Below, one piece after another: positions 18,394 to 63,344 of a stretch of 64,000 nucleotides of DNA (its first letter is position 1; every line of letters begins with the position of its first letter). The notes below the pieces were generated by a model. That model was not told the DNA's origin and searched no databases. It worked only from the letters and a program-made list of their open reading frames with translations. A program made the position numbers and the translations under genes. This stretch comes from a virus (lineage: Duplodnaviria; Caudoviricetes), in the IMG/VR virus record IMGVR_UViG_2863404153_000002, positions 5,165-69,164 of that record. One strand, given 5' to 3'.

Positions 18394-19053
18394 ATGACCG
18401 CCGCCTGCATCGTCGCCACCTGCCCGCGCGAACTCCGCGACTGGGAGGACGCCACCAGCCAGGTCATCTGCACGCCCTGCCACGACCGCGCCCGCAACAT
18501 CCTCCGCAGCATCCCCGCCGCCCTCACCGTCCTTCACGGATCGATGCATCGCGAACGCAGCGGGGAGAGCGGACGCGCCGGCACCCGGGAAGCGCCCCTG
18601 CCGTGCCGCACCGACGTCCTCAACCTCGTCGGACCGGCCGCCACCGGAACCGTCCACGACCCGAACGGCGACCAGATCGGACAGCAGCCCATCGCAGGCC
18701 TGCTCGGCAGCTGGGTACGGCTCGTCTGCGAAGAACGCCGGATCAACGGGCCCAGCCGGTACCGCGTCGAGGACTTGGCCGCCTGGCTCGCCTCCCAGCT
18801 CGGCTTCGCGGCGACCCAGCATTGGGGCGCTGAGCTGGTCAGCGAGCTGATCGACCTCGACCGCTCCCTGCGCGGGATCATGCAGATCGACGTCCGCACC
18901 CGCGCCGTACCCCGCCCCTGCCCGAACGACCGCTGCCAGAGGCTGGAGCTCACCCGCACAGACCACGACGCCTACACCCGCTGCAGCGCCTGCGGAACCG
19001 CCTGGACAGACGCCGAACTCAACCACGACGCCGAACGACGAGCCGCCGCATGA
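18394..19053 (+). CDS. Zn-binding phage protein (paralog of 31309..31959), possible late regulator
   Basis: CxxC at both ends, APLPCR motif; RBS AAGGAG. Confidence 0.75.
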   Translation: MTAACIVATCPRELRDWEDATSQVICTPCHDRARNILRSIPAALTVLHGSMHRERSGESGRAGTREAPLPCRTDVLNLVGPAATGTVHDPNGDQIGQQPIAGLLGSWVRLVCEERRINGPSRYRVEDLAAWLASQLGFAATQHWGAELVSELIDLDRSLRGIMQIDVRTRAVPRPCPNDRCQRLELTRTDHDAYTRCSACGTAWTDAELNHDAERRAAA

Positions 19054-19104: not shown

Positions 19105-19518
19105 CTACTCGGCCAGGGCGTCGTCGAGGTACTCCTGCACCGGCTCGAACAGCCCATACGGCACGTAATCGGGGATCTCATCGAGGCTGACCCAGGCAAC
19201 GGCGTCCAGCTCGTCGGCGTCCGCGACGTGCGCCTCGCCCCCGACGACCTTGCACGCCGTGTAGCTCATGAGCCGCTTCGTCTTCGGGTGGACCCGCTCG
19301 CCGATCAGGTGCGACGCAGTGACGACGAGACCGGTCTCCTCGATCGTCTCCCGCACCGCCGCGGCCTCGGCAGTCTCACCGTCCTCGATCGCGCCAGCCG
19401 GAAACTGCCAGCTGAGCTCGCCCTCCTTCACGCGGCGGCGCACCATGAGCACCTTGCTTCCGTCCGTGATGATCGCGGCGGAGATGCCGGGCTTCTCGGT
19501 CGTGGTCTCGGTCGTCAT
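19105..19518 (-). CDS. Nudix hydrolase (type found in actinomycete conjugative elements, pSAM2 Pif-like)
   Basis: Nudix box GAIEDGETAEAAAVRETIEETG. Confidence 0.92.
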   Translation of the reverse strand: MTTETTTEKPGISAAIITDGSKVLMVRRRVKEGELSWQFPAGAIEDGETAEAAAVRETIEETGLVVTASHLIGERVHPKTKRLMSYTACKVVGGEAHVADADELDAVAWVSLDEIPDYVPYGLFEPVQEYLDDALAE

Positions 19519-20135
19519 GCGGCAACCTCCTCGAACGGTGGATAGTTCGAGATCTGGTGTGCGCGTTGTCCGGAGAATCCCAGCCGTTCGCCAACCTCGC
19601 GCCAGGTGAGCCCGCGGCCCTTCAGTCTGAGCACGATCTCTCGCGCCGCCGCCTTCTGTAGGAAGACGTGTCGCTTCTCTGCTTCGCAGACGGCCTTGTA
19701 TAGCTCCAGGGGATCGGCGATCGCTGCCAGAGTGGAGTCGAGGGTGGCGGCGAACTCCATGAGCGCGTCGAAAGCCGGGTGGTGATTAGGATCCGGCGGT
19801 GTAGCGAAAGCCTTAGGTTTCGACGTGGGCTTGGACTTCACTTTCCTCAGACTGATCTTTGGGCGGCTCCAGGGTTCGCCCTCGACAGCCCACTGGATGA
19901 GCCGGACCGGGTCACGGCGAAAGGTGAACCATTCGCCGTGCGATCGGAACTCCTTGAAGTAGCGATGAAGCTGGGTTTCCAGCTCACGGCCACCCGGGCA
20001 GGTCCAGAAGGCTTCGAGAGGCACGGGCGACATCCGCTGAATGTCGGCAAGCCTCTTCTGGAGGTTCCCTGTCGTCCCGATCTTCACGGTGTTGCTGCCG
20101 GGCGTACCGAGTATGTAGACGACTTCTCCGGTCAC
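19515..20135 (-). CDS. GIY-YIG (T5orf172-like) nuclease domain fused to a C-terminal HTH
   Basis: VYIL..VKIGTT..KRL..LETQLH..GEWF; C-terminal LTWREVGERLGFSGQRAHQI. Confidence 0.8.
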   Translation of the reverse strand: MTGEVVYILGTPGSNTVKIGTTGNLQKRLADIQRMSPVPLEAFWTCPGGRELETQLHRYFKEFRSHGEWFTFRRDPVRLIQWAVEGEPWSRPKISLRKVKSKPTSKPKAFATPPDPNHHPAFDALMEFAATLDSTLAAIADPLELYKAVCEAEKRHVFLQKAAAREIVLRLKGRGLTWREVGERLGFSGQRAHQISNYPPFEEVAA

Positions 20136-21622
20136 TTGGCCCCCTGCCCGTAGCTCCAGGTGTTGCCCGTGCCGCGGTACTCGGAGACGGGAATCGGCTG
20201 AACGCCTTCGCGCATCCGTGAGCGGTACAGCATGCCGTGCAGGTGGTCGACTTCGTGGGCGACGAGTCGGGCCATGCCCCTCTCGAAGATGGTGATGCGC
20301 TGCTGCCCGTCGATGTCGGTGTGCTCCACGCTGATCGCGAGGGGGCGGGGGACCTTGCCGCGGACGTCGAAGAAGCTCAGGCAGCCTTCGTACTGCTCGT
20401 CAGTCTCTCGTGACTCCTCGACGATGCGCGGGTTGAACAGGGTGATGGATTCACCGTCGGGGGACCGGACGATCGCGGCGGCCCGGTCGATGCCGATCTG
20501 TGTCGCTGCCACGCCCATTCCCTTGCCGAAGACGTGCACGGTGGAGGCCCGTTCGGCTGCGGAGATCAGTTCGGCGACGACCCGGCGCGCGTCCTCGGCC
20601 TCGCCAGGCAGGTCGAACGGTCGCGCGGTCTTGGTCAGGATCGGGTCGCCCTCCTGGACAATGCCGACCGCGCTCATCCTCTCGCTCGCGGTCGCTTCGG
20701 ACTCCAGTACGTGCAATGCATCCTCCTGGTTTGGGCGGGTTCGGAACTTCCATTCAAGCCGATACCGGGCGTGCAGCGGAGGGTCTTCAGTCGACCAGGA
20801 GAAGACGCGACGGCCGTCCTCCTCGGTGCGGCGGACCGCGGTACGGAACGGCATCGCCTCAGCGGTCATGCTCGTCTCCGTGCCCCACACGATCGGGTCC
20901 AGGTCGGCGGGGAAGTCGAGGCGAACGCTCATGCGCTGCGTCGGCAGACGAACCGCCCGCTGGAACCACGAGCCCCACTTCTCGTCCCCGACGGTGTAGC
21001 TGTACTCCAACCACACCGACTCGCCCGGGTACAGCGGGTACTGCCCGAAGATCAGCCACAACTCCTTGAACGCGTCGCGGTCGTGCTTCACCCGCCACGT
21101 CAGCGGCTCGCCGTCGATCGACGCGCTGAGGCCGATCTCCTCCCACGTCAGCGGGTTCTCGCGGTAGTGCTGATTCGACCGCTCGGGGTCTCCCGGATAA
21201 CGGTCGACGGAGATCCGGACCAGATAGCGGGTCACCGGGTCCGGGCTGTCGTTGTAGAGCCGGCGGCGCTGGGTGGCCCGGTACGTGCGGCCGTCGTAGC
21301 AGAGCGTCGTGTCCTCGTGCTCGACGATCAGGCTCGTCGCGTGGGACTCGTCGCCGTTCGGCGCCGGGTGAGTGGCTGGTGCCCTGCCGGTCGCCTCCAG
21401 GTCGCGGAAGGCTCGCCGCAGCGCGCCGCCAGCCCGGAGGGTGTCGTCGGCCTGCCGGGCGAACGCGGCGGACGGGGCCAGCTGCCCGCCCTCGACCTTG
21501 GACACGTAGGACGGCGTGTATCCGACCTTGCTGGCGAGCGCTGACTGCGAGAGGCCCCGCACGTCACGCCAGTACTTCAGCTCAGCGACGAACGCTTCTG
21601 CTGCTGCTTGCTGCTCCGGCAT
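20132..21622 (-). CDS. XRE-family HTH + uncharacterised beta-rich domain + peptide deformylase fusion
   Basis: N-terminal GLSQSALASKVGYTPSYVSKVE; PDF motifs GMGVAATQ, EGCLS, HEVDH all present. Confidence 0.9.
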   Translation of the reverse strand: MPEQQAAAEAFVAELKYWRDVRGLSQSALASKVGYTPSYVSKVEGGQLAPSAAFARQADDTLRAGGALRRAFRDLEATGRAPATHPAPNGDESHATSLIVEHEDTTLCYDGRTYRATQRRRLYNDSPDPVTRYLVRISVDRYPGDPERSNQHYRENPLTWEEIGLSASIDGEPLTWRVKHDRDAFKELWLIFGQYPLYPGESVWLEYSYTVGDEKWGSWFQRAVRLPTQRMSVRLDFPADLDPIVWGTETSMTAEAMPFRTAVRRTEEDGRRVFSWSTEDPPLHARYRLEWKFRTRPNQEDALHVLESEATASERMSAVGIVQEGDPILTKTARPFDLPGEAEDARRVVAELISAAERASTVHVFGKGMGVAATQIGIDRAAAIVRSPDGESITLFNPRIVEESRETDEQYEGCLSFFDVRGKVPRPLAISVEHTDIDGQQRITIFERGMARLVAHEVDHLHGMLYRSRMREGVQPIPVSEYRGTGNTWSYGQGAK

Positions 21623-21765
21623 GGCTCCCCTGCCTGTGCCTGTGATTGAGGTGTGAGTGATCGGCTCTCAGGCTGCCGTCACATCCCGTACCAGCGGTCT
21701 TCTTGCGGGAGAGGCGGGGTAGCCCGCCGCACCCGAGGAGTGATCGTGACGGCAATGCCGAGAGG

Positions 21766-21960
21766 CTACGAGGGCGCTACTGGCGGCTTGTCGGGCCGCT
21801 TCGGGAGTTCGTCTGTCTCATGCGTGAGCCAGCGGAAGAACGCGTTGATGTGCGAGTTCAGGGTGGAGTCCACCTCGGCGACGGCGGCCTTGGCGCGCTC
21901 AAGAAGTTCGGGCTCAGGGCGGTATGTCTTCGCTGGGATTCTGTGGACTCCATGGGGCAT
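21766..21960 (-). CDS. Ribbon-helix-helix-like small regulator
   Basis: KTYRPEPELLERAKAAV..LNSHINAFFRW pattern; divergent from transfer operon. Confidence 0.6.
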   Translation of the reverse strand: MPHGVHRIPAKTYRPEPELLERAKAAVAEVDSTLNSHINAFFRWLTHETDELPKRPDKPPVAPS

Positions 21961-21976
21961 GGCGAAATCTTCGCAT

Positions 21977-22044
21977 GGTGGATTGCCACCGGTCCATAGG
22001 CTGGGCTACGGTGGTGGAGTTCCACCACGGGGCTGCCTTCCACC
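21977..22044. promoter_or_regulatory. Tandem palindromic operators GGTGGA-N2-(G/T)CCACC
   Basis: GGTGGATTGCCACC at 21977; GTGGTGGAGTTCCACCAC at 22011; half-site TTCCACC near 22038. Confidence 0.6.
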
Positions 22045-22140
22045 AGCAACCGTGCGCACAAATGAATGTGGCCCTGCCCTGGGCTTCCACACACCAGGAC
22101 AGGACCGGCACGACCTCCCTGACGTAACCAAGGAGTCGGC

Positions 22141-22596
22141 ATGACCAACCATACCGGTGCGCCCATGCGCGCCTATCCTCCCGCTGAGCGGGCGCTGAGC
22201 CTCACCCTCGACGCCGAGGTCATGACCGACCTCGACACCGGCGCCTTGTCGCTGGTTGCGTCGACGGATCCGCAGTTGTCGGACCTGGCCGAGGTGTCGG
22301 CGGCCCGCCTGCGGGAGCTGATCGCGGCGGCCCGTACCGGTCTGGTCGCGTTCGAGCGGCTGGCTGACGAGCACGAGGCCCGCGAGTCCCTCCAGGCGCT
22401 GCTGGCCGAGCACGGTCTGCGCGTCGAGGAGTGGAACACCGGCAGCCTCGACCCGCGGCTCCGTCACCACCTCCGCGCCGTGTACGACCCGACCGAGGGC
22501 GATGGCCGCACCGTCATCGTCCCCGCCGGCCAGGACCCCATCGAGCGCCTCACCGCCGTCCGCCAGCTGATCGCGGGCCTCGGGGGTGCGCTGTGA
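22141..22596 (+). CDS. Hypothetical protein of transfer island
   Basis: RBS AAGGAG; first gene of a coupled operon. Confidence 0.75.
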   Translation: MTNHTGAPMRAYPPAERALSLTLDAEVMTDLDTGALSLVASTDPQLSDLAEVSAARLRELIAAARTGLVAFERLADEHEARESLQALLAEHGLRVEEWNTGSLDPRLRHHLRAVYDPTEGDGRTVIVPAGQDPIERLTAVRQLIAGLGGAL

Positions 22597-22814
22597 GCGC
22601 CCCGACCGAGCCCCTCACCCCGGCTGCTGCGGACGCCCTGCGCTCCCTGGAGTTGCGGGTGACGGCGGTCCGCTACCTGGACGCCGCCGACAACTGCCGG
22701 GCGCTCGCGGCGGTCGCCGACTTCGACGGTTGTCTGGCCGCGCAGGACGAGATGGCGTTCTGTCGCTGCCAGCTCGCGAAGGCCGGCCGCCTTGACCTGA
22801 TCGGCGGCGTGTGA
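22593..22814 (+). CDS. Small hypothetical protein
   Basis: GTGA coupling. Confidence 0.65.
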   Translation: MSAPTEPLTPAAADALRSLELRVTAVRYLDAADNCRALAAVADFDGCLAAQDEMAFCRCQLAKAGRLDLIGGV

Positions 22815-23143
22815 TGGCGGACCAGATGTATGTGCGGCGCTGGCAGCGGGCCGCGCACGAGGCGCTCGGCGAGTTCCTCCAGGCCGAGTTGCCTGGTGTC
22901 ACGTGGACGATCGCGACGACGGGGGCGCTGGTTGCCGATGTGGATTCGCTGACGTCGGCGCCGGACGAGCAGCGTGCGGCGTTCGCCGCCTGGGCCCGGC
23001 ACCTGAACGCGAAAGTGACGCCGGAGCGGGTCAGCTCCGACGGTGCGGTCCACCTGTACGCGCAGTTCGCGTGGCAGGGCGAGCGGGTCCGCGGCGCGAT
23101 CCGGGCCACGATCTACCCGCCGTTCGAGGGCGGTGGCCTGTGA
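22814..23143 (+). CDS. Hypothetical protein
   Basis: TGATG coupling. Confidence 0.65.
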   Translation: MADQMYVRRWQRAAHEALGEFLQAELPGVTWTIATTGALVADVDSLTSAPDEQRAAFAAWARHLNAKVTPERVSSDGAVHLYAQFAWQGERVRGAIRATIYPPFEGGGL

Positions 23144-23307
23144 GCGCCCGCGAGATCCTCGACTTCTTCCCGGCTGGCGGCCCGCGCGGTTCGTGGCCGG
23201 CGGAGGAGAAGGCCGCCGAGCTGACGGCTCAGGGCCAGCCCGCCACGGTCCGCATGGACCTCGACAGCGACCGGTTCCTCGTCGTCCCCGCTGAGGGGAG
23301 GGCGTGA
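23140..23307 (+). CDS. Small hypothetical protein
   Basis: GTGA coupling. Confidence 0.6.
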   Translation: MSAREILDFFPAGGPRGSWPAEEKAAELTAQGQPATVRMDLDSDRFLVVPAEGRA

Positions 23308-23426
23308 TGACGGAGCAGGAAGCCGCCGACGCCCTGGCCGCGCAGCGGATCGCGGAGGCGATGGCCGCCGCTCAGGCTGCTGAGGCCGCCCGTCTGGCCG
23401 CCGAGCAACTGGCCGCACAGCAGTAA
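23307..23426 (+). CDS. 39-aa Ala-rich helical peptide
   Basis: TGATG coupling, RBS GGGGAGG; translated by hand (MTEQEAADALAAQRIAEAM...). Confidence 0.55.
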   Translation: MTEQEAADALAAQRIAEAMAAAQAAEAARLAAEQLAAQQ

Positions 23427-23529
23427 CCCCTGATCGCCGCAGGCGGCGGGATGAACCGAATCCCCCGCTGCCTCGCCGCCTGCGGCCCCAACCCCACCAC
23501 CCGTTCTATCCCGAGAGGGCCCACGAGCC

Positions 23530-23769
23530 ATGTCCATGATCCTGTTCGACGCCGATCTGTCCGCCAACCCGCTGGGTGCCCGGCGCCGCAAGAACGCCAC
23601 CGTCGGGGAGATGGTCGACACGTTCGTCGCCGACCTGTTCGCCGACTACGTGACCGCCCGGGCCGCCGGCGACATGGAGCAGGCGCAGCTGATCCTCGAC
23701 CACGCCGCCTCGATCGACCGAGCCCTGGTCGACGAGCTCGCCGGCTTCGACTACCCGGCCGCCGCCTGA
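23530..23769 (+). CDS. Small hypothetical protein
   Basis: GAGAGG RBS-like; codon bias. Confidence 0.65.
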   Translation: MSMILFDADLSANPLGARRRKNATVGEMVDTFVADLFADYVTARAAGDMEQAQLILDHAASIDRALVDELAGFDYPAAA

Positions 23770-23884
23770 CCCGCCGTCTTCCGCACCAGCCAGCCCCGGC
23801 AGTCACGCCGCGAGGGCGCCCGATCGACTCGGGCCCGGGGCGCTGCACCGCCTACCTGATCCATCGACTCAAGAGGAGCTCTAC

Positions 23885-24079
23885 ATGCCCTTCCGGACCC
23901 GCGACTACACCGCCACCGTGACCGACCCGGAGACCGGCCAGACCAGCCGTATCGAAGGCACGCACACCATCCACGCCTTCAACCCGCCCCTCGACGACGC
24001 CAGGGCCATCCGAGACGACCTCGCCAAGGAAGGCATCCAGGCGTCCGGCGTCCAGGTCGGCCCCGCAAAGATCAGCTAG
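23885..24079 (+). CDS. Small hypothetical protein
   Basis: RBS GAGGAG. Confidence 0.65.
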   Translation: MPFRTRDYTATVTDPETGQTSRIEGTHTIHAFNPPLDDARAIRDDLAKEGIQASGVQVGPAKIS

Positions 24080-24190
24080 CCGCGGCGAGAGCAAGACCCA
24101 CAGCTGACCGGCTGCCCGCCCGGCCCGTCTCGCACGGGCCGGGTCGAGGGGAACCGCTCAGCGTTCCGTCACCCACAAAAGGAGACCCGC

Positions 24191-24367
24191 GTGGGCCTGT
24201 TCAGCAAGGCTGCCGATTCCGCCGCTTCCACCGTCGCGCGCGCAGGCCAGAAGGTCGCCGGCGACAAGGGCGTCGAGGCCACCAACAAGATCACCGGCCC
24301 GCTTCTCGGAGTCCGCTTCGAGAAGTGCCCCGACAACTGCGACCACAGCGACGCCAGCCACAGCTGA
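24191..24367 (+). CDS. 58-aa protein starting MGLFSK
   Basis: RBS AAGGAG, GTG start; translated by hand. Confidence 0.6.
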   Translation: MGLFSKAADSAASTVARAGQKVAGDKGVEATNKITGPLLGVRFEKCPDNCDHSDASHS

Positions 24368-24408
24368 CGACTGCCCGCCCCGCCACCCCCACCCGAGAGG
24401 AGTCCGCC

Positions 24409-24618
24409 ATGGGCCTGTTCAAGAAGACCGACGAGGAGAAGGCCAACATCGCCGCCATGAAGGCCGCCGACGCCGCCCTCAACGCCAACAGCGACCGCGA
24501 ACGCCGCGCCGGAATCCACGACGAGACCCCCGAGTACCAGCGCCTCAACGCCGCCGCCAACGACGCCGCCGCGAAGGTTTCGTGGCTGCACGGCGGCACC
24601 AAGCGCAAGAACCGCTGA
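24409..24618 (+). CDS. 69-aa protein starting MGLFKK
   Basis: RBS GAGGAG, ATG start. Confidence 0.65.
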   Translation: MGLFKKTDEEKANIAAMKAADAALNANSDRERRAGIHDETPEYQRLNAAANDAAAKVSWLHGGTKRKNR

Positions 24619-24646
24619 CCACCCCGACGCCCGAGAGGAGCCCGCA

Positions 24647-24943
24647 GTGCACGCCTATCTGATCACCGCCAAGCCGGGCCGGCTGCGGCGTGCCGTCCGC
24701 TGGGTGGCCCGGTGGGCGCTGCGGACCCTCGCCGTGACCGTGATGGTCGCCCTCGGGGCGGTCGTGTTCACCGTCCGCTCCGCCCGTCCGGTCATCAACT
24801 ACTGCGCCACCCGTGCGGCGTGGCTGGAGCTGTGGGCCGCCTCTGTGACCGGGATCGGCCCGGTCGGGGCGGCAGTCGGCTCCGGCCTCACCGACGAGTT
24901 CGTCAAGGAATTCCACAAGGCGCGCGCCAGCGCCAACGTCTGA
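24647..24943 (+). CDS. Membrane protein of transfer island
   Basis: RBS GAGGAG; hydrophobic segment. Confidence 0.65.
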   Translation: MHAYLITAKPGRLRRAVRWVARWALRTLAVTVMVALGAVVFTVRSARPVINYCATRAAWLELWAASVTGIGPVGAAVGSGLTDEFVKEFHKARASANV

Positions 24944-24958
24944 GAGGACTGCACTGCC

Positions 24959-26356
24959 ATGACTGCCAGCCCGTCGAAGGTGAACGGCACTGCCCGTCCG
25001 CCCGCCGTGCCCGTGCTTGGGGACTGGCAGCCCATAGAGGCCACCCCCACCCAGCCGACCGACATCTCCACCGAACCCCAGCCGCCCGTTCAAGGCGACA
25101 GCGAGATGGTGGCGCAGGCCAAGGCCGAGGCAATCCGTGCTGCGGCGTGGGCCGAGTCCGAGGAGCGCCGCCTTGCCGCCGAAGCGGAGAAGGAAGCCGC
25201 GCTCAGGCGTGCCGATGCCGAAGCGGAAGCGATCCGCGCCAAGGCTGTCGAGGAGAACCGGCGGATTCAGCTCGCCAACGACCGCGCCGAGCGGAAGGCC
25301 CGTGAGGAAGAGGCGGCATCTGAGGCCCGCATCGCCGAATCCAACCGGCGGCGCGCCGACGCCGACCGGGCGCGCGAGGAGGAGGCGCGCAAAGCCGAGG
25401 AGCGGCAGCAGGCCGAAGCCCTGGCCGCCGCCGAGGTCACCGAGGCCGAGGACCGGTGGCGCGGGTACGCCCGCAGCTTCTACATCGTCTGTGCCATCGT
25501 CGCCTTGCCCGTACAGGTCGCCGCGTTCTACGACCCCAGCGCCCTCTGGCTGATGGCCGCACCGCTCATGCTCGAAGGCGGCGCCTGGGTCGTCCTCAAG
25601 GGGGCTGCGGCTGCGGTCGCGTCCCGCCGCCCGCACTGGCACTACCGGCTGATCGCCTGGCTGCTTGCGTTCATCGCCGCCGGCATCAACCTGTGGCACG
25701 GCCTCACCGCCTTCGACCCGGCCACCGCCATCGGTACCGCGTTCGCATCGATCGCCGGCCCCGGCGTGTGGGACCTCCACGAGCACGGCCGCATCCGCAA
25801 GCGCGACGGTGTCCCCACCCGCCGGGAGCGCAAGGCGGCCGAGAAGGAAGCGAAGCGGATCGCCGCGGAGAAGGCCGCGGAGGAGAAGCGGCGCGCGGCC
25901 GACAAGAAGACCGCCGACAAGGCCGCCGAGGAGAAGGCGGCGCAACTGACGGAGCTCCGCAAGGCGCACTTCCCGAAGGTTTGGGAGCACGCTGTGAAGC
26001 TGGCGGCGGACCTCGGGGAGACGGACCCGAACGCCGTCTGGGAGCGCGCCAAGCTCGACGTCGAGGGCGCCAAGCCCGGCGAGTCCGCCGACGTTCTCCG
26101 CATGCGGAACGCAGCCACCGCCAGGGTCGACGCGGCCCGCCAGAACAAGCCCGTGAACACCGTCAGCAAGAACGTGAATGCCCAGCGTGTTCCACAAACG
26201 ATGCGCGGTACCGGGCGGGGCTCGAAGACAGGTCCGAAGGTGCGCGGGGTGCGCCGCTCGGGAGACACCCCGAAGTACCACCCAGTCACCGGCCAGCTCG
26301 CTTCTGAGACGAAGCGCCAGTCCCTCGCCAGCACCCGCCAGAAGGACCCGTCATGA
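24959..26356 (+). CDS. Spd-like (plasmid spread) coiled-coil multi-pass membrane protein
   Basis: Long E/A/R coiled coil, about 4 TM helices, second coiled coil; coupled to traB. Confidence 0.75.
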   Translation: MTASPSKVNGTARPPAVPVLGDWQPIEATPTQPTDISTEPQPPVQGDSEMVAQAKAEAIRAAAWAESEERRLAAEAEKEAALRRADAEAEAIRAKAVEENRRIQLANDRAERKAREEEAASEARIAESNRRRADADRAREEEARKAEERQQAEALAAAEVTEAEDRWRGYARSFYIVCAIVALPVQVAAFYDPSALWLMAAPLMLEGGAWVVLKGAAAAVASRRPHWHYRLIAWLLAFIAAGINLWHGLTAFDPATAIGTAFASIAGPGVWDLHEHGRIRKRDGVPTRRERKAAEKEAKRIAAEKAAEEKRRAADKKTADKAAEEKAAQLTELRKAHFPKVWEHAVKLAADLGETDPNAVWERAKLDVEGAKPGESADVLRMRNAATARVDAARQNKPVNTVSKNVNAQRVPQTMRGTGRGSKTGPKVRGVRRSGDTPKYHPVTGQLASETKRQSLASTRQKDPS

Positions 26357-28356
26357 CGACCGAGATGCCCCCCGAGTTCCCCGCCGACTGGGACCTCGAC
26401 AAGGTGATCCCCTCGGCCGGCGAGCTGCACGTGCCCGACGACCTGTCCGGCGAGGACATCGCGCCCGGCATCGTCGCCCCCTACGAGCCGCGGCCGGCCG
26501 TCCTGTCGAAGACCGGCTCCGCGACGATGGTCGCCGCGGCGGCCACCGGCCGAGCCTGCGGACTCACCGCCCGCTGGTTCTTCACCGGCGCCAGCGCCGT
26601 CGGATTCCTCGGCTGGCGCTACGTCCGCGCCCACGACCTCCAAGAAGTCCTCGGCGGCATGTCGAAGGGCTCCGACTGGAACAAGGTCGACATCGTCCGC
26701 AAGAAGCGGTGGCGATTCCTCGGCTGGGCGGCCGGCATCACCGCGGGCCTCAACCTCGCCGGCTGGTGGGCGCTCGTGAAGTACGCAGGCATGACCGCAG
26801 CCGACTGGTCCTGGAAGATCCCCCCCGCCCTGACCGCCGCCGCTGCGGTCGCCGCCGTCACCCTCTACGGCCGCTACCGCGCGAACAGCCCCGGCATCGC
26901 CCCGGAGATGCTCGTCGCCGATCACGACAACCCGGAATCCGACGAGCCGTTCCCGCTGGCCCTCGCCACGTCCCCGAGCATGGTTGAGGACTGTGTGTCC
27001 AGGGCGCTCGCCTGGGAGGGCATCGGCACCCGGCAGATCCGGGCGCTCGGTTTCCGCGGGAAGTTCTGGGAGATCGACGTGATCCTCAAGGGTTCGACTC
27101 CCGGCAAGGTCAACGCGGTCTGTGACCAGCTGGACGCCCACTTCAACATCAAGCAGGGCGGCACCCTCATCGACCCTGACCCTGCCGAGTCCGCGCACAT
27201 CATGTTGCGCCTCGTCACCGGCAACCCGTTCGACGACATGCCCAAGCCGACCGTGCACGCCCCGAACAGCCTGGACATCTCCGACCCGCACAACTTCGGC
27301 CGCTGCATGGACGGCAGCCCCCTCGACCTCGTCCTCGAAGGGCAGCGCATCCTCGTCATCGGCGTGTCCGGTTCCGCTAAGTCCACCGGCGTCCTCCGTG
27401 ACCTGGCCGAGGTCATCACCGCCTGCCACAACGCCATCGCCATCGAGATGGACCCGGTCAAGGATGGGCTGCGCGAGTTCGAAGGTGTCATGGCCGTCCC
27501 CCCGATCAGGGGTACCAGGGCCTGCGAGCAGTGGCTTGAGTACCTGGTCAAGATGGCTGGCGGTCGCAACGTCATCCGCAACCGGCTCGGTATGGGCGAC
27601 ACGTGGGTTGCCACTAAGGAGCGCCCCGCCATCTTCGCGCTCGTCGACGAGTTCATCTTCCTCAGTCAGCGCGCGAAGGAGCTGTTCATCGAACTGCTCC
27701 GCATCGGCAAGCAGTCCGGGATCTACGTGGTGGCCGCCGGGCAGGACGCCACCTCTGACGCCATGGGCGACGCCATCGCCGACACCTTCACGACCCGCAT
27801 CATGCTCGCTGCCCGCTGGGACGACATCCGGCTCGTTCTCGGGCAGGGGGCTGCCGCGAAGGGCTTCCGCCCCGACCGTCTCGTCCCCGCCTTGAACAGG
27901 GACATCAAGAACGACGCCGGCCAGTCGTATATCAAGGGTCCCGGCCTGGACCGGCCGCTTCTGTACGGGTGGAACGAGCACAGCAACCACGGGATCAAGC
28001 AAGCCGTCGCCGACCGCAAGGCCGCGGGCCGGCCCTGGTTTGACCGCGACACCCTCGCCACCGCCGGTCTCCTCCACCTCGCCGATGGCGGGACCGGGGA
28101 GCGGATCGTTGGCGACCGGCAGATCGCGGCGGACGCCGTGGTGGTCATGGCCGAGGCCGGCGTGGACCGGATGAAGACCGAGACCCTGGCCGAGCGGCTC
28201 GTCGACCACGCGCCCGACGTCTATGCCGACCTGACTGCCGCCGAGCTGCGCGCTCGGCTGAAGGAAGCCGGAGCGGGCTCACCGGTGCAGCTGGGGGAGT
28301 GCGAGGGCGAGCGGAACCCCCGCGGCTACAAGCTCGAAGCGCTGACCGTCTTGTAG
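26353..28356 (+). CDS. traB: TraB/TraSA-type FtsK-SpoIIIE conjugative DNA translocase
   Basis: N-terminal TM segments, Walker A-like GVSGSAKS, Walker B FALVDEF, AGQ motif, C-terminal wHTH ending RGY. Confidence 0.85.
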   Translation: MTTEMPPEFPADWDLDKVIPSAGELHVPDDLSGEDIAPGIVAPYEPRPAVLSKTGSATMVAAAATGRACGLTARWFFTGASAVGFLGWRYVRAHDLQEVLGGMSKGSDWNKVDIVRKKRWRFLGWAAGITAGLNLAGWWALVKYAGMTAADWSWKIPPALTAAAAVAAVTLYGRYRANSPGIAPEMLVADHDNPESDEPFPLALATSPSMVEDCVSRALAWEGIGTRQIRALGFRGKFWEIDVILKGSTPGKVNAVCDQLDAHFNIKQGGTLIDPDPAESAHIMLRLVTGNPFDDMPKPTVHAPNSLDISDPHNFGRCMDGSPLDLVLEGQRILVIGVSGSAKSTGVLRDLAEVITACHNAIAIEMDPVKDGLREFEGVMAVPPIRGTRACEQWLEYLVKMAGGRNVIRNRLGMGDTWVATKERPAIFALVDEFIFLSQRAKELFIELLRIGKQSGIYVVAAGQDATSDAMGDAIADTFTTRIMLAARWDDIRLVLGQGAAAKGFRPDRLVPALNRDIKNDAGQSYIKGPGLDRPLLYGWNEHSNHGIKQAVADRKAAGRPWFDRDTLATAGLLHLADGGTGERIVGDRQIAADAVVVMAEAGVDRMKTETLAERLVDHAPDVYADLTAAELRARLKEAGAGSPVQLGECEGERNPRGYKLEALTVL

Positions 28357-28367
28357 GCATTCGTCCC

Positions 28368-28522
28368 CTGCTATCGAGGTGCTAAGCCCTGCTAAGTCGC
28401 AGGTCACAGCCGCTACACCGCCTGCTACCCGCACTGCTACCCGGATTGCGTAGCAGACGGCGTAGCAGCCCCCATAGCGGCTGTGACCTGCACGTTAGCG
28501 GCAGTCAGCACCCCGATAGCAC
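28368..28522. repeat. Long imperfect palindrome of GCTA-centred units directly after traB (clt-like)
   Basis: 17-bp perfect IR 28399-28415 / 28475-28491; 14/16 outer IR; six GCTA left, five TAGC right. Confidence 0.75.
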
Positions 28523-28565
28523 CGCACAAATCACCACAAACCGATCATCTGTCCGAGGAGACCAA

Positions 28566-29333
28566 ATGCCGCCCGCGAAGCGCACCCCGGCCCGCCGCGC
28601 CACCGTCACCAAGGCGCGAAAGACGCCAGCCCGCAAACACCCCGCCCGCCGCGTCAAGATCCCCCGCAAGGGCCCCCTCCACGCCCAAATCGGCGCCCGT
28701 ATGGTCCTCTTCGCCGTCTCCCACCTCGACACCCACGGCGACATCGTCCGATCCCGCAAAGACGCCGCAATCCTCCGCGCCACCCACGAAGGCTGCCCCA
28801 CCTGCCACGGCAACGGACAAATCTTCACCAAAGGCAAAGACGGCTCCTTCACCGGCTCCAAGCCCTGCCCCGCCAAGCCCACCAAACAGAAGGTGTCCAA
28901 GTGGGCCGTGTACAAGGCGTCCCGGTTCGGCGCCGAAAAGAACACCGGCCTCGTCGGCTGGGCCTGCCCCTGCGGCAAGAAGGAGAAGCCCCGCTACCGC
29001 GACGCCAAGGAAGCCACCAAAGCCCTCCGCGTACACGAGCGGAAGAAGCACGGCGGGAAATCCGTCGGCGGAGCCTGGTACGCCCAAGCCGCCGAAGGCG
29101 CCGCGCAGCCGGCCATGCAGCCGGTGCCGTCCAAGATCGTCACTGACTCCGGCCTCACCGACGACCAGTGGATCAAAAAGAACAAGAAGATCCACCCCGG
29201 CAAGGCCATAGCCAAAGGCCTCTGCTGGATGTGCGCCGGAAACGGCTCCCTCCACGCCGCCTTCGGCAACCAGCAGATCCTCACCGTCTGCCCCGAATGC
29301 CAGGGCAACGGCAAAGCCCCTCAAGCCGCCTGA
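28566..29333 (+). CDS. Basic Zn-finger protein (DnaJ-like CxxCxGxG repeats)
   Basis: CPTCHGNG, CWMCAGNG, CPECQGNG; RBS GAGGAG. Confidence 0.75.
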   Translation: MPPAKRTPARRATVTKARKTPARKHPARRVKIPRKGPLHAQIGARMVLFAVSHLDTHGDIVRSRKDAAILRATHEGCPTCHGNGQIFTKGKDGSFTGSKPCPAKPTKQKVSKWAVYKASRFGAEKNTGLVGWACPCGKKEKPRYRDAKEATKALRVHERKKHGGKSVGGAWYAQAAEGAAQPAMQPVPSKIVTDSGLTDDQWIKKNKKIHPGKAIAKGLCWMCAGNGSLHAAFGNQQILTVCPECQGNGKAPQAA

Positions 29334-29354
29334 TCCCACTAGGAGAACCTGATC

Positions 29355-29843
29355 GTGAACCGCCTGCCCGAGCCGACGCCCACCGCCCCCGCGGCCGGGC
29401 AGGCCCCCAACCCGCTCACCGACTCCGTCATCTCCGCCGCCGTCGAACACGCCATCGAGAAGGCGAAGCGCAACGACACCAGCCCCGAGGCCGTAATCGG
29501 CACCGCCCCGCCCGTCGCCCAGCCCGGCCGGCCACCGATGAGCGAGAAGGCCGCCGACGCCAGCGTCATGATGATCGCGGCAGGCTTCCTCAGCATCTGC
29601 CTCGGCGCCGCAGTCTCCGGCGTCCTCTACTTCTCCGGCAACGCCAACGAGACCGTCGTCATCGCCATCTGCACTGCCCCGCCAGTCACGTTCGTGGCAC
29701 TCAAGTCGCTGGTGAAGAGCGCCAAGCAGGCCACGCCCGCCGAGATCCACAACCACTACACAGGCACCGTCCACCAGGACCAGCGCACCACCCACACCGC
29801 GAACAACGGCGTGTGGGTCAAGAACAGCAACCGCAACCACTGA
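29355..29843 (+). CDS. SpdD-like two-TM spread protein
   Basis: PPVAQPGRPPMS, two TM helices, HNHYTGTVHQDQRT tail recalled from actinomycete conjugative elements. Confidence 0.65.
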   Translation: MNRLPEPTPTAPAAGQAPNPLTDSVISAAVEHAIEKAKRNDTSPEAVIGTAPPVAQPGRPPMSEKAADASVMMIAAGFLSICLGAAVSGVLYFSGNANETVVIAICTAPPVTFVALKSLVKSAKQATPAEIHNHYTGTVHQDQRTTHTANNGVWVKNSNRNH

Positions 29844-31175: not shown

Positions 31176-31308
31176 CCCCGCCCCCCCAAGGCCCGCTCCC
31201 TTCCCGGGACGCGGCCGTCACTGTGCCATTGGCCCGGACTGTAAACCCCGTAGTGCACCATTGGCTCAAGCATCACTCTGCTTCCCGCACCGCCCCGAGG
31301 AGCCGACC

Positions 31309-31959
31309 ATGCACGACAACGCCGCCGCCCTGGACGAATACGACTGGCCGGTCTGCCCCTGCGGACGCCAACTCCGAAACGACGAACTCGGACGCCAAGC
31401 CTGCCGACTCTGCCAGGAACACACCGACCAGTCACTCCGCCAGCTCCCCGGCCCCCGAGGTTTGTACGCCCAACTCGCCACCCGGCTAGTCCCCGGGCGC
31501 GGGGGTGACGGCCCGGTCGTGTCCGTCTCCCGCACGGCGCCACTGCCCCTCCGCCTCGAACCCCTCAGCCTCATGGCCCGAGGCGGCGTCGTCACCATCC
31601 TCCAGACCTGGCTGATCGACTGGCACGAACACCTCGGCTGGCGGCACCCGCGCTGGAAGGGTGATCTGCAGCAGCAACTCGACCAAGCCGTCAAGGCACT
31701 GCGCACCAATCTCGAATGGGCAGCAACCGAACACCCCGCGTTCGCAGACTTCGCCCACGAGGTCAGCAGCACGGTCCGCCAGTGCGAACGCCAGATCACC
31801 GGCGAGCGGACCGAACGCCCGATCGCCGTAGCCTGCCCGTGCGGAACCGTACTGAGGATCACCGTGTCCACCCCCGGCGCTCGGTGCCGAGGCTGCACCA
31901 CCCAGTACGCGCGCACCGAGATCCTTGATCTACCTCTCGCCACACGAACGGCTGCATAG
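31309..31959 (+). CDS. Zn-binding phage protein (paralog of 18394..19053), possible late regulator
   Basis: CxC..CxxC N-terminal, APLPLR motif, C-terminal CPC..CRGC. Confidence 0.78.
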   Translation: MHDNAAALDEYDWPVCPCGRQLRNDELGRQACRLCQEHTDQSLRQLPGPRGLYAQLATRLVPGRGGDGPVVSVSRTAPLPLRLEPLSLMARGGVVTILQTWLIDWHEHLGWRHPRWKGDLQQQLDQAVKALRTNLEWAATEHPAFADFAHEVSSTVRQCERQITGERTERPIAVACPCGTVLRITVSTPGARCRGCTTQYARTEILDLPLATRTAA

Positions 31960-32526: not shown

Positions 32527-33663
32527 ATGCCCCTGCCCCCCGGACTCTCCACCGTCACCGTCACCGGCACCTACAAGCACCCCGACGGGGCGCCCTACGC
32601 CGGCCGGATCATCTTCCGCCCCGAGCCCGACATCCTCACCTCGGCCGCCCACGGAACCCTCGTCCTCGGAGACGCCGAGACAGTCCTCGACAACAACGGC
32701 ACCTTCTCCACAACGCTGCTGGCCACCGACGACCCCGACGTGACGCCCGTCGGCTGGACGTACACCGTATTCGAGCGGTGGCATGACACGATCGGGCGCA
32801 GCTACCCCATCTCACTGCCCGCCGCGGCACCGACCGTGGACATCGCTGACGTTGCCCCCACGGCACCAGCAGAAGGCCAACACGTCGTCATCACCGGACC
32901 CCAAGGGCCGCCAGGGCAAGACGGATCGAACGCCGAAGCCGAGGCGTACACCGACACCGCGGTGGCCGCTCACTCCGGCGACACCACTGACGTGCACGGC
33001 ATCCCGGATACGGCACTCCTCGAAACCATCGCAGGCGCAGTCGCCAAGGTTGCAGCCCACGCTGCGGCCATCGACCCGCACAGCGACCGGGCCTACGCGG
33101 ACGGACAGTTCGCAACCATCGCCGTCGTCAACACCCTGACCGGAACCGTCACCACACTCAGCGGCACCGTGACCGCCCTGAACGGCTTCGTGGACGATTG
33201 CCTCACCCGCGTCGCAGCGATCGAGAACGGCACCGCGTTCCTTGCCGCGCTCAACGTTGTCGGCAACGCGCTCGTCTCGGGCGGTGATCTAACCGTCAAG
33301 GACAACGCCAAGGGCTATCGGTTCCGTCGCGGCGGCGGCGCACTCGACCTCGAAGCGACTGGCGCAGACCTCATCGTGTCCAACTGGTCCGGCACCGGCT
33401 TCAATGGCACACAGCGCAGCTACGACCGCTACTCCGCCGACGCCCTCAACGTCCAACACGCAGGCAAGCGCGAGTTCGTCGCCGCCCTGTACGGGGCAGC
33501 CGTCCACGTCATCGACCCCGACAACAACCGGCTCGGCTTCCACGGCAAGACACCAGTCTCCCAGCAGGCCATCACCGGATCCCGGGCAGATGGCACGGCC
33601 CTCACCAACCTCCTGGCCGCCCTAGACAACCTCGGAATCATCGACGACCAGACCACAGCGTGA
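32527..33663 (+). CDS. Minor tail/fibre-like structural protein located upstream of the packaging genes
   Basis: N-terminal VTVTGTY..DG..G.I.F.P beta domain, short GPQGPPG linker, T/A-rich body; RBS GGGAGGTG. Confidence 0.7.
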   Translation: MPLPPGLSTVTVTGTYKHPDGAPYAGRIIFRPEPDILTSAAHGTLVLGDAETVLDNNGTFSTTLLATDDPDVTPVGWTYTVFERWHDTIGRSYPISLPAAAPTVDIADVAPTAPAEGQHVVITGPQGPPGQDGSNAEAEAYTDTAVAAHSGDTTDVHGIPDTALLETIAGAVAKVAAHAAAIDPHSDRAYADGQFATIAVVNTLTGTVTTLSGTVTALNGFVDDCLTRVAAIENGTAFLAALNVVGNALVSGGDLTVKDNAKGYRFRRGGGALDLEATGADLIVSNWSGTGFNGTQRSYDRYSADALNVQHAGKREFVAALYGAAVHVIDPDNNRLGFHGKTPVSQQAITGSRADGTALTNLLAALDNLGIIDDQTTA

Positions 33664-60550: not shown

Positions 60551-60705
60551 CCGTCACACCTCCGTCCGCTTGCCGCTGGTGCGGCATCGACCAACGAGAG
60601 CACGCTCAGCGCTGGCACCGCTCAGCCGGGTGGCACAAGCATGAGCCGCCCACCCAACAGCAGATCAAAGAGCGGATGCTCATGCGGCGAGGTGGCCGCC
60701 CGTGA
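60547..60705 (+). CDS. Small Zn-finger protein
   Basis: CRWCG..H..WH; coupled to recombinase. Confidence 0.6.
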   Translation: MTVTPPSACRWCGIDQREHAQRWHRSAGWHKHEPPTQQQIKERMLMRRGGRP

Positions 60706-61739
60706 CCGCCCTCGTCCCGCGCCCGTCGGCGGAGCTGTCGACCGACCGGCACGACCCCCGCGACGACTGGCCCGACGAAGCACGCGCACTCGCCGACCAC
60801 CTCGCCGGCATCTACGGCGACCGCGACCCGTTGCCCACCATCGCCGGAAGCTGGGTAGCCCGCCAGAAGAGCCGCCACACGAGGCGGGCCTACGTCCGCA
60901 CGTTCAAGGCGTGGGAGCAGTACGCCCGCAAGAGCAAGATCCATCCGCTCCAGGCGAAGCTGCCGCTCGCCGACGCCTACGCCAAGCACCTCGCCAAAAC
61001 CCCCACCCGCAACGGACGGCCCCCAGCGGAGACCACGCAGGCGCAGGCCCTCGCCGCCGTGGGCTCCTTCTACACCTACGCCGCCCGGCTCCAGGCCGTC
61101 GACTCCGACCCGTTCGCCGCCGTCAACCGGCCCTACGTCGATCCCGACTACTCGCCGACCGAAGGCATGACCGAAGCCGAGACAATGCGGCTCATCGAGA
61201 CCGCACGCGACTGGGCACCCCGCTCCTACGCCCTCGTCATGCTCCTCTACCTCACCGGCGCCCGCGTCGACGAACTCCTCTCCCTCAACGCCGACCAGCT
61301 CGGCTACGACCGAGGACACCGCACCCTGCCCCTCACACAGAAGGGCGGGAAGAAGCGACCCGCACCCGTACCGCCGCTCGCCCTCGACGCGCTCCTCGCC
61401 CACCTCGGCGACCGCACCGACGGCCCGCTGTTCGCCACCGAGTCCGGCCGCCGCTGGACGCAGCCCGAAGTGTGGAAGCACCTCCGCGTCCTCGCCCGCC
61501 GCGCCGCCATCCCACAAGCCGCCAGCATCAAGCCCCACACGCTGCGGCACCAGTTCATCACCGACAACCTCGCCAACGGCGTCCCACTCCAGGACGTACA
61601 GGACGCCGTTTCGCACTCCGACCCGCGCACCACCCAGCGGTACAACCGACGCCGCCGCCAGCTCGACAACCACCCTGCCTACGCCCTCGCGGCCCGGCTC
61701 GGAGAACGGCTCCAGTCTCAGGAGGAAAACACGCCATGA
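60702..61739 (+). CDS. XerC/D-like tyrosine recombinase
   Basis: TGARVDEL, KGGK, PHTLRH, VSHSDPRTTQRY catalytic residues; no arm-binding N-domain evident. Confidence 0.92.
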   Translation: MTALVPRPSAELSTDRHDPRDDWPDEARALADHLAGIYGDRDPLPTIAGSWVARQKSRHTRRAYVRTFKAWEQYARKSKIHPLQAKLPLADAYAKHLAKTPTRNGRPPAETTQAQALAAVGSFYTYAARLQAVDSDPFAAVNRPYVDPDYSPTEGMTEAETMRLIETARDWAPRSYALVMLLYLTGARVDELLSLNADQLGYDRGHRTLPLTQKGGKKRPAPVPPLALDALLAHLGDRTDGPLFATESGRRWTQPEVWKHLRVLARRAAIPQAASIKPHTLRHQFITDNLANGVPLQDVQDAVSHSDPRTTQRYNRRRRQLDNHPAYALAARLGERLQSQEENTP

Positions 61740-62347: not shown

Positions 62348-62545
62348 GTGACCGACCAGCGCTACCACCTCACACTGACCATCAACGACCAGCCCGTCAT
62401 GCACGGCTGGTGGGGGAGCGAGGAGACCGCCCGCCGGAAGTTCACGCGCTGGATCGGCGAACACGGCAACGCCGACGGCGCCCGCATCACCCTCACTGAC
62501 GAAGAGACCGGCACCGTGTTGACGACCTGGCCGGACGAGCCGTAG
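62348..62545 (+). CDS. Small hypothetical protein, probably leaderless
   Basis: CACCCT six nt before GTG. Confidence 0.65.
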   Translation: MTDQRYHLTLTINDQPVMHGWWGSEETARRKFTRWIGEHGNADGARITLTDEETGTVLTTWPDEP

Positions 62546-62565
62546 CCCTCTGCCACCCTGGACAC

Positions 62566-63003
62566 ATGACGACTCTGCCGGAGACGGACCCGCGCATCGG
62601 CGCTCTGATGGACCTCACACAGGGGCTGATCCTGAAGTACACCGAACTCGCCTCGAACGTGGCCGCCCACCTTCCTGACCAGGTCAAGGCAGAGCTCATC
62701 GAACACACGCAGACACTGGTTCAGGAGGCCCGAGATCGCCGAGATGGACTTCGAGCCGCCCATCGGAGAGTACGTCATGTCGACTCGCCCCAGCGTTGTC
62801 GGTGGCGGTTCGTAGACTGTTCTCGTCCGGCATCGATGTCTTTCGATCAAGCCGGGTTTGCTGAGTTGCTGGCGCCCGCCCCGAGCGTGGAACCCCGGGG
62901 CGGGCCGCACTCTGAGAGGGGGCCTCAGCCCTCCGCGTGCCTGACGGCCTTCTTGAGCGCCATCTCGACGTCGTACCGTCCGGTCCCGGTCTGGGCCGCA
63001 TAG
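62566..63003 (+). CDS. Hypothetical protein (3' end uncertain)
   Basis: Helical N-terminus; last 79 nt overlap the convergent gene. Confidence 0.4.
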   Translation: MTTLPETDPRIGALMDLTQGLILKYTELASNVAAHLPDQVKAELIEHTQTLVQEARDRRDGLRAAHRRVRHVDSPQRCRWRFVDCSRPASMSFDQAGFAELLAPAPSVEPRGGPHSERGPQPSACLTAFLSAISTSYRPVPVWAA

Positions 63004-63122
63004 GCGGTGACGGCGGCCTGTACGGCGCCCGCGGTGGCGACGGTGAGCCGCCCGGCCTGGATCTCCTGCCAGGCGGAACGTTCCAGCTCGATCAGATCGT
63101 CGGGGAAGTCGATGGCAGCCAC
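62925..63122 (-). CDS. Small hypothetical protein, leaderless
   Basis: TAGGAT six nt before GTG. Confidence 0.7.
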   Translation of the reverse strand: MAAIDFPDDLIELERSAWQEIQAGRLTVATAGAVQAAVTAYAAQTGTGRYDVEMALKKAVRHAEG

Positions 63123-63131
63123 GGCGCGATC

Positions 63132-63311
63132 CTACGCGGCCTCGGTGACGTCCCCGCGCTCCACCTGCCGCAGCTCGCCGAGGAGCCGGTGATACTCGTC
63201 CCGCTGCTCGTCCGTCAGCCGCGCCGCCGGATGCGACCACAGGGCCCGGATCGCCGCGTTGATGTCGTCGGCAGACCGCGAGGGGCCCTCGGCGGGCGGG
63301 ATGGGGGACAT
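63132..63311 (-). CDS. 59-aa hypothetical protein, leaderless
   Basis: Translated by hand (MSPIPPAEGPSRSADDINAAIRALW...). Confidence 0.65.
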   Translation of the reverse strand: MSPIPPAEGPSRSADDINAAIRALWSHPAARLTDEQRDEYHRLLGELRQVERGDVTEAA

Positions 63312-63317
63312 GCTCCG

Positions 63318-63339
63318 ATCCTAGGCGCCGGGTCTGACA
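63318..63339 (-). promoter_or_regulatory. PafBC/RecA-NDp-type promoter TGTCAG-N10-TAGGAT
   Basis: Exact 10-nt spacing; +1 falls on the A of ATG 63311. Confidence 0.6.
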
Positions 63340-63344
63340 GTGGG

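Follow-up and report, generated by a model that had tools for sequence, protein, structure and literature searches.

Can a tailed phage carry, as part of its own genome, the machinery with which Streptomyces plasmids pass double-stranded DNA (dsDNA) between hyphae, and what would such a phage gain from it? The question is raised by a stretch of 64,000 nucleotides, here called the window, which comprises bases 5165–69164 of the 69,164-bp virus record IMGVR_UViG_2863404153_000002 and represents 64 kb of a provirus (IMG/VR class) with a completeness of 100% (CheckV). A block spanning positions 19105–29843 of the window, here called the island, was found to hold genes for a TraB-like translocase and an SpdB2 homologue together with a repeat site resembling the clt loci of conjugative plasmids. 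Judged by its sequence, the element is a complete tailed temperate Streptomyces phage, a VWB-like siphophage, with an integral TraB/SpdB2/clt-type module. We hold with moderate confidence that the island serves this phage as a native and working transfer cassette, of the kind used by the plasmids pFP1 and pSVH1, which would provide a second, capsid-free route of transmission.

Translocase, membrane partner and repeat site

The central gene of the island, traB, encodes a predicted dsDNA translocase of the FtsK family. The protein falls in phrog_12531, 'FtsK/SpoIIIE-like' (expectation value, E, 1e-64), and its sole NCBIfam match is plasmid_TraB, the family that is matched by 28 of 50 members of its protein family, ahead of every other family. 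When the family profile was compared with pSVH1 TraB by hhalign, a probability of 99.1% (E 5e-19) was obtained over window residues 237–667, in an alignment that begins where the motor begins, passes through the clt-reading domain and ends at residue 765 of the 772 residues of pSVH1 TraB; the pairwise identity of the two proteins is ~21%. An AlphaFold2 (AF2) model calculated from a 50-sequence alignment reached a predicted local distance difference test score (pLDDT) of 87 and superseded an earlier run on 17 close sequences (pLDDT 50). Foldseek placed FtsK motor domains first, with 2ius at the top (E 2e-15, TM-score 0.70), and the TcpA conjugation coupling protein after them; a sequence search of the PDB returned marginal FtsK matches only.

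The model has long helices at residues 57–92, 106–144 and 156–177; a Kyte-Doolittle value of 1.5 is reached by no 19-residue window of the protein. At the other end, residues 585–666 are modelled with pLDDT >90 as a helix-strand-helix-helix-hairpin, which is the topology of a winged helix. Residues K343 and D432-E433, corresponding to the Walker A and B motifs, are invariant in 50 relatives, and the ratio of nonsynonymous to synonymous substitution rates (dN/dS) of traB, 0.24–0.40, indicates purifying selection. Relatives of this protein carry the label 'hypothetical protein' in NCBI. From sequence and model taken together, the ATPase is best assigned to a divergent TraB-family lineage, TraB-like in the features compared and not an equivalog by curated thresholds.

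The stop codon of the preceding gene overlaps the start codon of traB (ATGA). Its product aligned with SpdB2 of pSVH1 with 31% identity over 340 aa (E 8e-17), all three parts of the protein being covered, and tblastn led to Streptomyces plasmid genes annotated as SpdB2 or DUF2637, though the match to Pfam DUF2637 itself was weak (E 0.006). The attributes that define an SpdB2 protein, namely a coiled-coil N-terminus, a multi-span membrane block, a conserved C-terminal domain and a gene upstream of traB, were all found.

The gap of 209 bp directly 3′ of traB is an imperfect palindrome with arms of 108 nt, the single-strand fold of which exceeds shuffled sequences in stability by a wide margin (z = −7.65). 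Six forward heptamers with a GCTA core (at 28368, 28379, 28389, 28410, 28422 and 28434) face five reverse heptamers (28450, 28462, 28474, 28495 and 28516), spaced at 10–12 or 21 bp, which is about one or two helical turns. The eleven heptamers are contained in 155 bp, and the first lies 12 bp past the traB stop codon. An inner inverted repeat opens with CGCAGGTCA at 28398, and 5 of the 12 exact CTGCTAM words of the window fall within this site. Published clt loci consist of clustered repeats located at the 3′-end of tra. The present site agrees with this pattern of short repeats, accompanied or not by inverted ones, at or beside the tra 3′-end, and a requirement for it in cis is putative. A plain terminator or an origin was considered for the palindrome and is disfavoured, since the heptamers vary together with the TraB wing, as described below, and a palindrome also follows traB in plasmids. 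The Spd-like membrane protein, the TraB-type FtsK protein and the palindromic repeat locus of the original prediction, which had been drawn from the letters and open reading frames (ORFs) of this stretch, were thus all recovered.

Relatives, cassette exchange and heptamer words

Relatives of the cassette were found in 17 IMG/VR records (TraB identity 52–82%) and at 15 further loci in species-representative genomes, 14 from Streptomyces and one from a metagenome-assembled genome of Catenulispora, several of which lie within chromosomes of 8–9 Mb. The core, made up of a small membrane protein, SpdB2, TraB and a basic protein, is present in 17/17 IMG/VR relatives. Some short genome contigs lack at least one further core gene; a palindrome of the same layout still follows traB in 32/32 relatives, and likewise in pFP1 and pSVH1. 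Five whole IMG/VR records are colinear with the window genome from the lysis to the replication genes. A tyrosine integrase is present in four of five complete relatives.

The island occupies the same position in the colinear relatives, including a 61.9-kb record that is bounded by direct terminal repeats (DTR) and 100% complete. Sequencing depth is flat over the island and its neighbours in the DNA contigs of the run holding the element. An island bounded by att sites of its own had been named as a finding that would speak against a unit with the phage; no direct att-like repeats above the shuffled expectation were found flanking it. Together with the same place in the DTR-bounded complete relative, this argues that the module is not a separate island, and on the sequence evidence the cassette is a native, exchangeable module of an integrative phage family rather than an insertion in one phage.

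In the five fully fetched relatives the cassette (TraB 76–82%) is better conserved than the virion genes. The reverse applies to a locus of Streptomyces sp. NPDC059165 (L057, 10001–22000), in which TerL, portal and TerS are 93%, 88% and 82% identical to those of the window, TraB is 49% identical and the heptamer is CCGTCTA; it is a clean case of in-place cassette replacement. These opposite patterns indicate that the cassette has been exchanged as a unit among phages.

The repeat word differs from one lineage to the next (GCTA in the window, and GCTCG, GCTCA, CCGTCTA, GCGTCT or CCGATCA elsewhere), with ~11 copies sharing the word and with the architecture and the inner repeat constant. At another locus (L058, 11917–12120), the palindrome frame and its GCAGGTCACAGCC inner repeat are unchanged, and the word is CCGATCA in ~8 copies.

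The pump was compared with its site in 16 distinct TraB proteins that are close to each other, of which eight go with GCTCG sites and the other eight with GCTCA sites. Identity between and within the two classes was 0.66 and 0.66 over residues 1–200, and 0.82 and 0.83 over residues 201–580, so that the heptamer classes are not simply clades. Over residues 641–667, identity was 0.62 between classes and 0.84 within them, and in the whole of TraB the only columns separating the classes are residue 646 (P in one class, T in the other) and residue 650 (I and L). The TraB protein of the window, which goes with a third word, has Q at 646 and C at 650. Both residues are located in the predicted wing, and their co-variation with the heptamers is the strongest evidence here, from sequence and model, that the TraB C-terminus may read the repeats.

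The phage genome around the cassette

The positions of the features are collected in Table 1; genes were called by means of GC at third codon positions (GC3) because the window has a GC content of ~69%.

Table 1 Features of the island and of the surrounding genome. Positions refer to the window unless stated otherwise.
Feature	Position	Strand	Properties
Tyrosine integrase, outside island	record bases 509–2017, upstream of window	−	
phrog_1467 gene, left neighbour of island	18394–19053	+	phrog_1467 E 9e-25
Nudix hydrolase, Pif-like by position	19105–19518	−	PF00293 E 6e-23; last gene of divergent operon
T5orf172/MUG113 (GIY-YIG-like) with C-terminal sigma70-r4-like helix-turn-helix (HTH)	19515–20135	−	PF13455 E 8e-13; PF10544 E 3e-9; Sigma70_r4 E 8e-4
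XRE-type HTH fused to peptide deformylase (PDF), candidate regulator, operon head	20132–21622	−	HTH_31 E 6e-12 (residues 11–72); Pep_deformylase E 8e-33 (residues 321–472)
Divergent control region	21623–22140		518-bp gap between opposed genes
Six small genes	22141–22596, 22811–23143, 23530–23769, 23885–24079, 24191–24367, 24325–24618	+	GC3 gene calls
Small membrane protein, 98 aa, conserved core	24647–24943	+	one hydrophobic span, residues 22–50
SpdB2 homologue, 465 aa	24959–26356	+	N-terminal coiled coil; transmembrane block, residues 170–250; charged C-terminal domain
TraB-like FtsK-family dsDNA translocase (predicted), 667 aa	26353–28356	+	N-terminal helical hairpins; motor domain; C-terminal winged helix
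clt-like site, 209 bp	28357–28565		directly 3′ of traB; palindrome with heptamer array
Protein with basic N-terminus and CxxC zinc finger, 255 aa, conserved core	28566–29333	+	DnaJ_CXXCXGXG-like E 1.5e-6; K/R-rich N-terminus
Membrane protein with two transmembrane (TM) segments, 162 aa, Spd-like by position only	29355–29843	+	phrog_19266 E 2e-44; hydrophobic spans, residues 65–120
Second phrog_1467 gene, right neighbour of island	31261–31959	+	phrog_1467 E 4e-28
Virion and lysis module: TerS, TerL, portal, protease, scaffold, decoration, major capsid, tail genes, tape measure, beta-helix fibre, amidase	35421–58026	+	Pfam
Xer-like tyrosine recombinase, outside island, near window end	60702–61739		

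Three further proteins of the island accompany the translocase and the SpdB2 homologue. The 98-aa membrane protein occurs in 17/17 IMG/VR relatives at 39–84% identity and gave no family match in Pfam or PHROG. The basic zinc-finger protein is present in the same number of relatives at 48–79%; the start of its gene, initially set at the first in-frame TTG (28446), was corrected to 28566. The 2-TM protein is 37% identical to pZL12.70c, the product of a neighbour of the FtsK-like gene of pZL12, and was found in 6/17 IMG/VR relatives. Its gene had been predicted as SpdD-like; an SpdD identity is putative.

A Nudix and regulator operon divergent from a run of small genes had also been predicted, and it is present as described, on the evidence of Pfam matches and of small plus-strand genes over 22141–24943. 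Copies of the Nudix protein, 60–81% identical, occur in 11/17 IMG/VR relatives, and it is 32% identical to pZL12.76c. Pif of pSAM2 is a Nudix protein with a role in conjugal immunity (PMC2440964); here too a Nudix gene lies inside the regulatory operon of a transfer module, and an immunity function is putative. The T5orf172/MUG113 gene is variable among relatives. The XRE-PDF fusion of 496 aa, with ~250 residues lacking an assignment between its domains, is not conserved in relatives; its gene heads the operon at the place taken by the Kor repressor in plasmids and in the integrative and conjugative elements of actinomycetes (AICEs). TCCACC/GGTGGA words are repeated in the divergent control region, as noted by eye, and the six small genes, which had no Pfam or PHROG match, are conserved in a patchy manner.

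Early and replication genes occur to the left of the island (DUF5131, beta-clamp-like, AAA_24 ATPase, C5 methylase, DnaC-like loader, DnaB helicase and N6 methylase), and an HNH endonuclease gene, a primase-like gene and then the virion genes to the right. The segment 34187–58829 is colinear with the temperate Streptomyces phage VWB at 30–70% amino acid identity, and the tape measure protein has 1401 aa. This colinearity, the gene content and the completeness of the record indicate a phage that is real and complete-looking, which agrees with the intact replication, head, tail and lysis genes of the original prediction. No match to the island proteins was found in VWB by tblastn, the island had no megablast match in the phage and plasmid collections searched, and query P0002 had none among 50,697 deposited phage genomes.

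Integrase, RepSA/RepAM and a recognisable Xis were not found inside the island, as had been predicted, although the six small ORFs without a family match could include a small recombination directionality factor. The claim that the island is free of tyrosine recombinases holds; it has to be complemented by the two that the genome carries outside it, the integrase upstream of the window and the Xer-like gene. ParA (AAA_31) was found neither in the record nor in four relatives, that is, in none of the five records searched, by a profile search whose first pass can miss matches; this first pass missed tape-measure genes that tblastn found, and its negatives are not taken as absence.

A DUF6397 gene, sharing 11 bp with the 3′-end of the integrase gene, has its ATG exactly at the first base of the record (L001, 1–519), and the record closes at a TGA; the provirus was thus trimmed at gene borders, so that these ends do not define the true att sites. 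A search for att sites between both record ends gave a 16-mer at most, and no credible tRNA was found. ARAGORN proposed a tRNA-like fold with a four-base anticodon at 63738–63834 on the minus strand, between a GntR gene and the last ORF and near the expected attP, which is probably spurious. This GntR gene, encoding a 129-aa GntR-type winged helix without effector domain, belongs to a block of small genes at 62348–64000, after the Xer-like gene. The block is kept, partly or fully, in 5/5 fully fetched relatives, among which the Xer-like gene was matched in one.

The two phrog_1467 genes on either side of the island encode Cys-rich proteins, and relatives hold a single copy, on the left or on the right side. 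A recent duplication bracketing the island was ruled out, as the two are just 22% identical, and from its sequence the pair looks like a remnant of recombination between phages. Positions 32527–33663, upstream of the terminase genes and far from the tail operon, encode a tail-fibre N-terminal domain (phrog_14726) joined to a polysaccharide-deacetylase-like part.

Known systems and the possible role of the cassette

The tra-spd locus of pSVH1 (NC_007431.1) consists of TraR, SpdB3-Spd79-SpdB2, Orf108, TraB and clt. It has the gene order of the island, with a divergently oriented regulator operon followed by small genes, spdB2, traB, clustered repeats and further genes, which in pSVH1 are spd genes; the TraB recognition word of pSVH1, GACCCGGA, clusters from 5 bp past the traB stop codon in forward and then reverse copies, as in the window. 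The island differs in having the XRE-PDF fusion instead of a GntR regulator and a GCTA-core heptamer instead of GACCCGGA, and in residing in a phage instead of a rolling-circle plasmid. The closest plasmid relative of the cassette is that of the theta plasmid pFP1 (NC_006912.1; Zhang et al. 2008, AEM 74:3368), with TraB 31% identical over 606 aa (E 9e-56), a DUF2637/SpdB2 gene upstream, the same divergent-operon gene order, the palindrome architecture, the CGCAGGTCA inner repeat and a basic protein after it. Unlike the window phage, pFP1 has a MobF relaxase gene, ParA, a GntR regulator and the word CTCTAC, and no virion genes. The traB gene of pFP1 is reportedly functional.

With AICEs such as pSAM2 the element shares a tyrosine integrase, a single Tra translocase, a Nudix (Pif-like) gene beside a regulator, which is of GntR or XRE type on the AICE side, and the logic of dsDNA transfer. 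AICEs span 9–24 kb, combine Int and Tra with a Rep function (RepSA, RepAM or Prim-Pol) and have no virion genes, whereas the present element is a 69-kb complete tailed phage in which Int and Tra occur with phage-type replication (DnaB/DnaC-type) and a full virion module, and its regulator is an XRE-type protein fused to PDF, not the GntR type of pSAM2 or pSVH1.

The nearest precedent is pZL12 (phage ZL12, GQ919031), published as a Streptomyces phage with a conjugal transfer locus that was reportedly defined by experiment (Zhong et al. 2010, J Bacteriol 192:3747). Both elements unite virion genes and a transfer locus in one replicon, the Streptomyces-type locus with its FtsK-like gene lying beside the late (virion) operon and divergent from a regulator. 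However, pZL12 is a 90-kb circular plasmid with ParA/ParB, whereas the window element is integrated, has a tyrosine integrase and does not show the extrachromosomal upkeep (ParA/ParB, plasmid replication) of pZL12. The virion modules are just distantly related, and the Tra lineage is different: tblastn of the TraB-like protein against pZL12.71c gave no match at E 1e-4, and the heptamer palindrome was not found after the FtsK-like gene of pZL12. Both the pSAM2-like Nudix and regulator logic and the pZL12 precedent, which the original prediction had invoked, were upheld by these comparisons. Its interpretation of the element as a complete phage with an integral TraB/SpdB2/clt-type module also stands, though the novelty attached to it was too strong in view of pZL12 (2010) and of Thoma et al. 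(2015), who had proposed a role in the spread of phage DNA for the SpdB2 homologues of phiC31 and VWB. What is known, then, is a phage with a transfer locus, and what differs here, on the sequence comparisons, is integration, another Tra lineage and the heptamer palindrome; in the literature no description was found of integrative prophages with a TraB/SpdB2/clt cassette.

Plasmid-type homology, gene order, the repeat site, its co-variation with TraB and the conservation of the core make a capsid-free transfer of dsDNA plausible. In such a transfer, the phage would supply excision by its own tyrosine integrase and replication by its DnaB/DnaC-type module. A membrane-anchored hexamer of the TraB-like protein would dock, via its winged-helix wing, on the eleven phased heptamers 3′ of its own gene and pump the circular dsDNA phage genome through the hyphal envelope, while the SpdB2 homologue, the small membrane proteins and the basic zinc-finger protein would carry the DNA over septal cross-walls. 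The divergent Nudix/regulator operon would keep the system off and may give donor–donor immunity in the manner of pSAM2 Pif. The outcome would be a spread between mycelia and/or between the compartments of one mycelium, in which the excised circle may move between hyphae and bypass receptors.

Several observations weigh against a working transfer cassette of this kind. The TraB-like protein scores 23.1 bits against plasmid_TraB (NF041214), short of the curated cut-off of 800 bits, it has no match to Pfam FtsK_SpoIIIE (PF01580) at E < 0.01, and its Walker A motif, GVSGSAKST, has Ala at the usual Gly before Lys, a feature invariant in the clade. No GntR repressor adjoins the cassette and the local regulators are not conserved in relatives, so that a kil/kor logic is putative. 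TraB and the repeats are adjacent and hence co-inherited regardless, and the downstream zinc-finger protein could be the reader of the repeats instead. No RNA run was listed as holding the element, and in three raw RNA runs labelled with the same species 0–1 reads fell on the stretch; these runs do not contain the element and hence do not bear on its expression. Lytic BE-cluster Streptomyces phages (e.g. Coruscant and Jay2Jay, with 130-kb genomes) have an FtsK-like gene of phrog_12531 with ~35% identity over the motor domain. In Coruscant, the sole BE record inspected (L043, 73077–74921), this gene is located among tRNA genes; none of its neighbours has an SpdB2-like annotation, and the following gene directly adjoins the translocase stop codon, without any intergenic space in which a repeat site could lie. 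Phages can therefore use this ATPase family to other ends.

A role confined to intramycelial spreading has the best standing among the alternatives and is still rather unlikely in our judgement. The phage would enter by ordinary virion infection, after which TraB and SpdB2 would pump its genome over the cross-walls and enlarge the lysogenised or lysed zone, with no mating. Such spreading is what Thoma et al. (2015) proposed for the phiC31 and VWB homologues, SpdB2 being needed for spreading and not for primary transfer, and it fits all the sequence evidence given for the transfer cassette equally well; against it, TraB and clt suffice for intermycelial transfer in plasmids.

Little credence is given to the proposal that clt, being integrated, has its cis effect on the host chromosome, so that TraB mobilises chromosomal DNA as AICEs do and the host, or gene flow, gains most. 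The element is indeed a provirus, relatives are found inside chromosomes of 8–9 Mb, and conjugating AICEs reportedly mobilise large segments of the chromosome (PMC11571958). This would leave unexplained the single fixed place of the cassette in differing phage backbones and in DTR-bounded complete copies, and a mobilisation of this sort could be a side effect and not the selected function.

A non-conjugative FtsK-like role, with the repeats as a loading or regulatory site, is an equally poor candidate; it might consist in segregation or dimer resolution with the Xer-like recombinase, in an aid to replication or packaging, or in the exclusion of incoming DNA. The BE-cluster gene and its surroundings in Coruscant point this way, as do the presence of an Xer-like recombinase gene in the genome and a replication function suggested by authors working on Streptomyces phages. 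The motor of the window phage is, however, coupled by translation to a true SpdB2 homologue, is modelled with long N-terminal helices that may be membrane-associated and is set in a plasmid gene order, and the Xer-like gene was matched in only G001 among the five fully fetched relatives. Finally, a passenger from a plasmid or an AICE, functionless for the phage, is very hard to credit: its nearest characterised relatives are plasmid genes and the local regulators vary, but all ORFs are intact, the dN/dS values of traB are those given above, the core is kept in 32 relatives over different backbones and the evolution of the repeats parallels that of the TraB wing.

A wider and more tentative proposal may also be considered, to which we lean rather less than to its rejection: that these elements form a widespread family of integrative Streptomyces prophages with two routes, virions and TraB-driven naked dsDNA. 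In this proposal, pairs of wing and heptamer, with at least six repeat words seen, would serve as address labels that can be exchanged and that keep the pump of a phage from mobilising competitors; residues 646 and 650 are the candidate specificity code, and whole cassettes are swapped between backbones. The two wing residues and the heptamer word offer a testable DNA-recognition code for a conjugative FtsK-like motor. Surveys for AICEs (e.g. PMC3218068) or for plasmids that rely on PF01580 will miss this TraB lineage.

If the cassette works, temperate Streptomyces phages would be able to move between hyphae without adsorption, so that neither lost receptors nor barriers at the surface would stop them. 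Prophage, AICE and plasmid would be less sharply separated in the main antibiotic-producing genus, and this would bear on the spread of prophages and of nearby chromosomal genes in soil.

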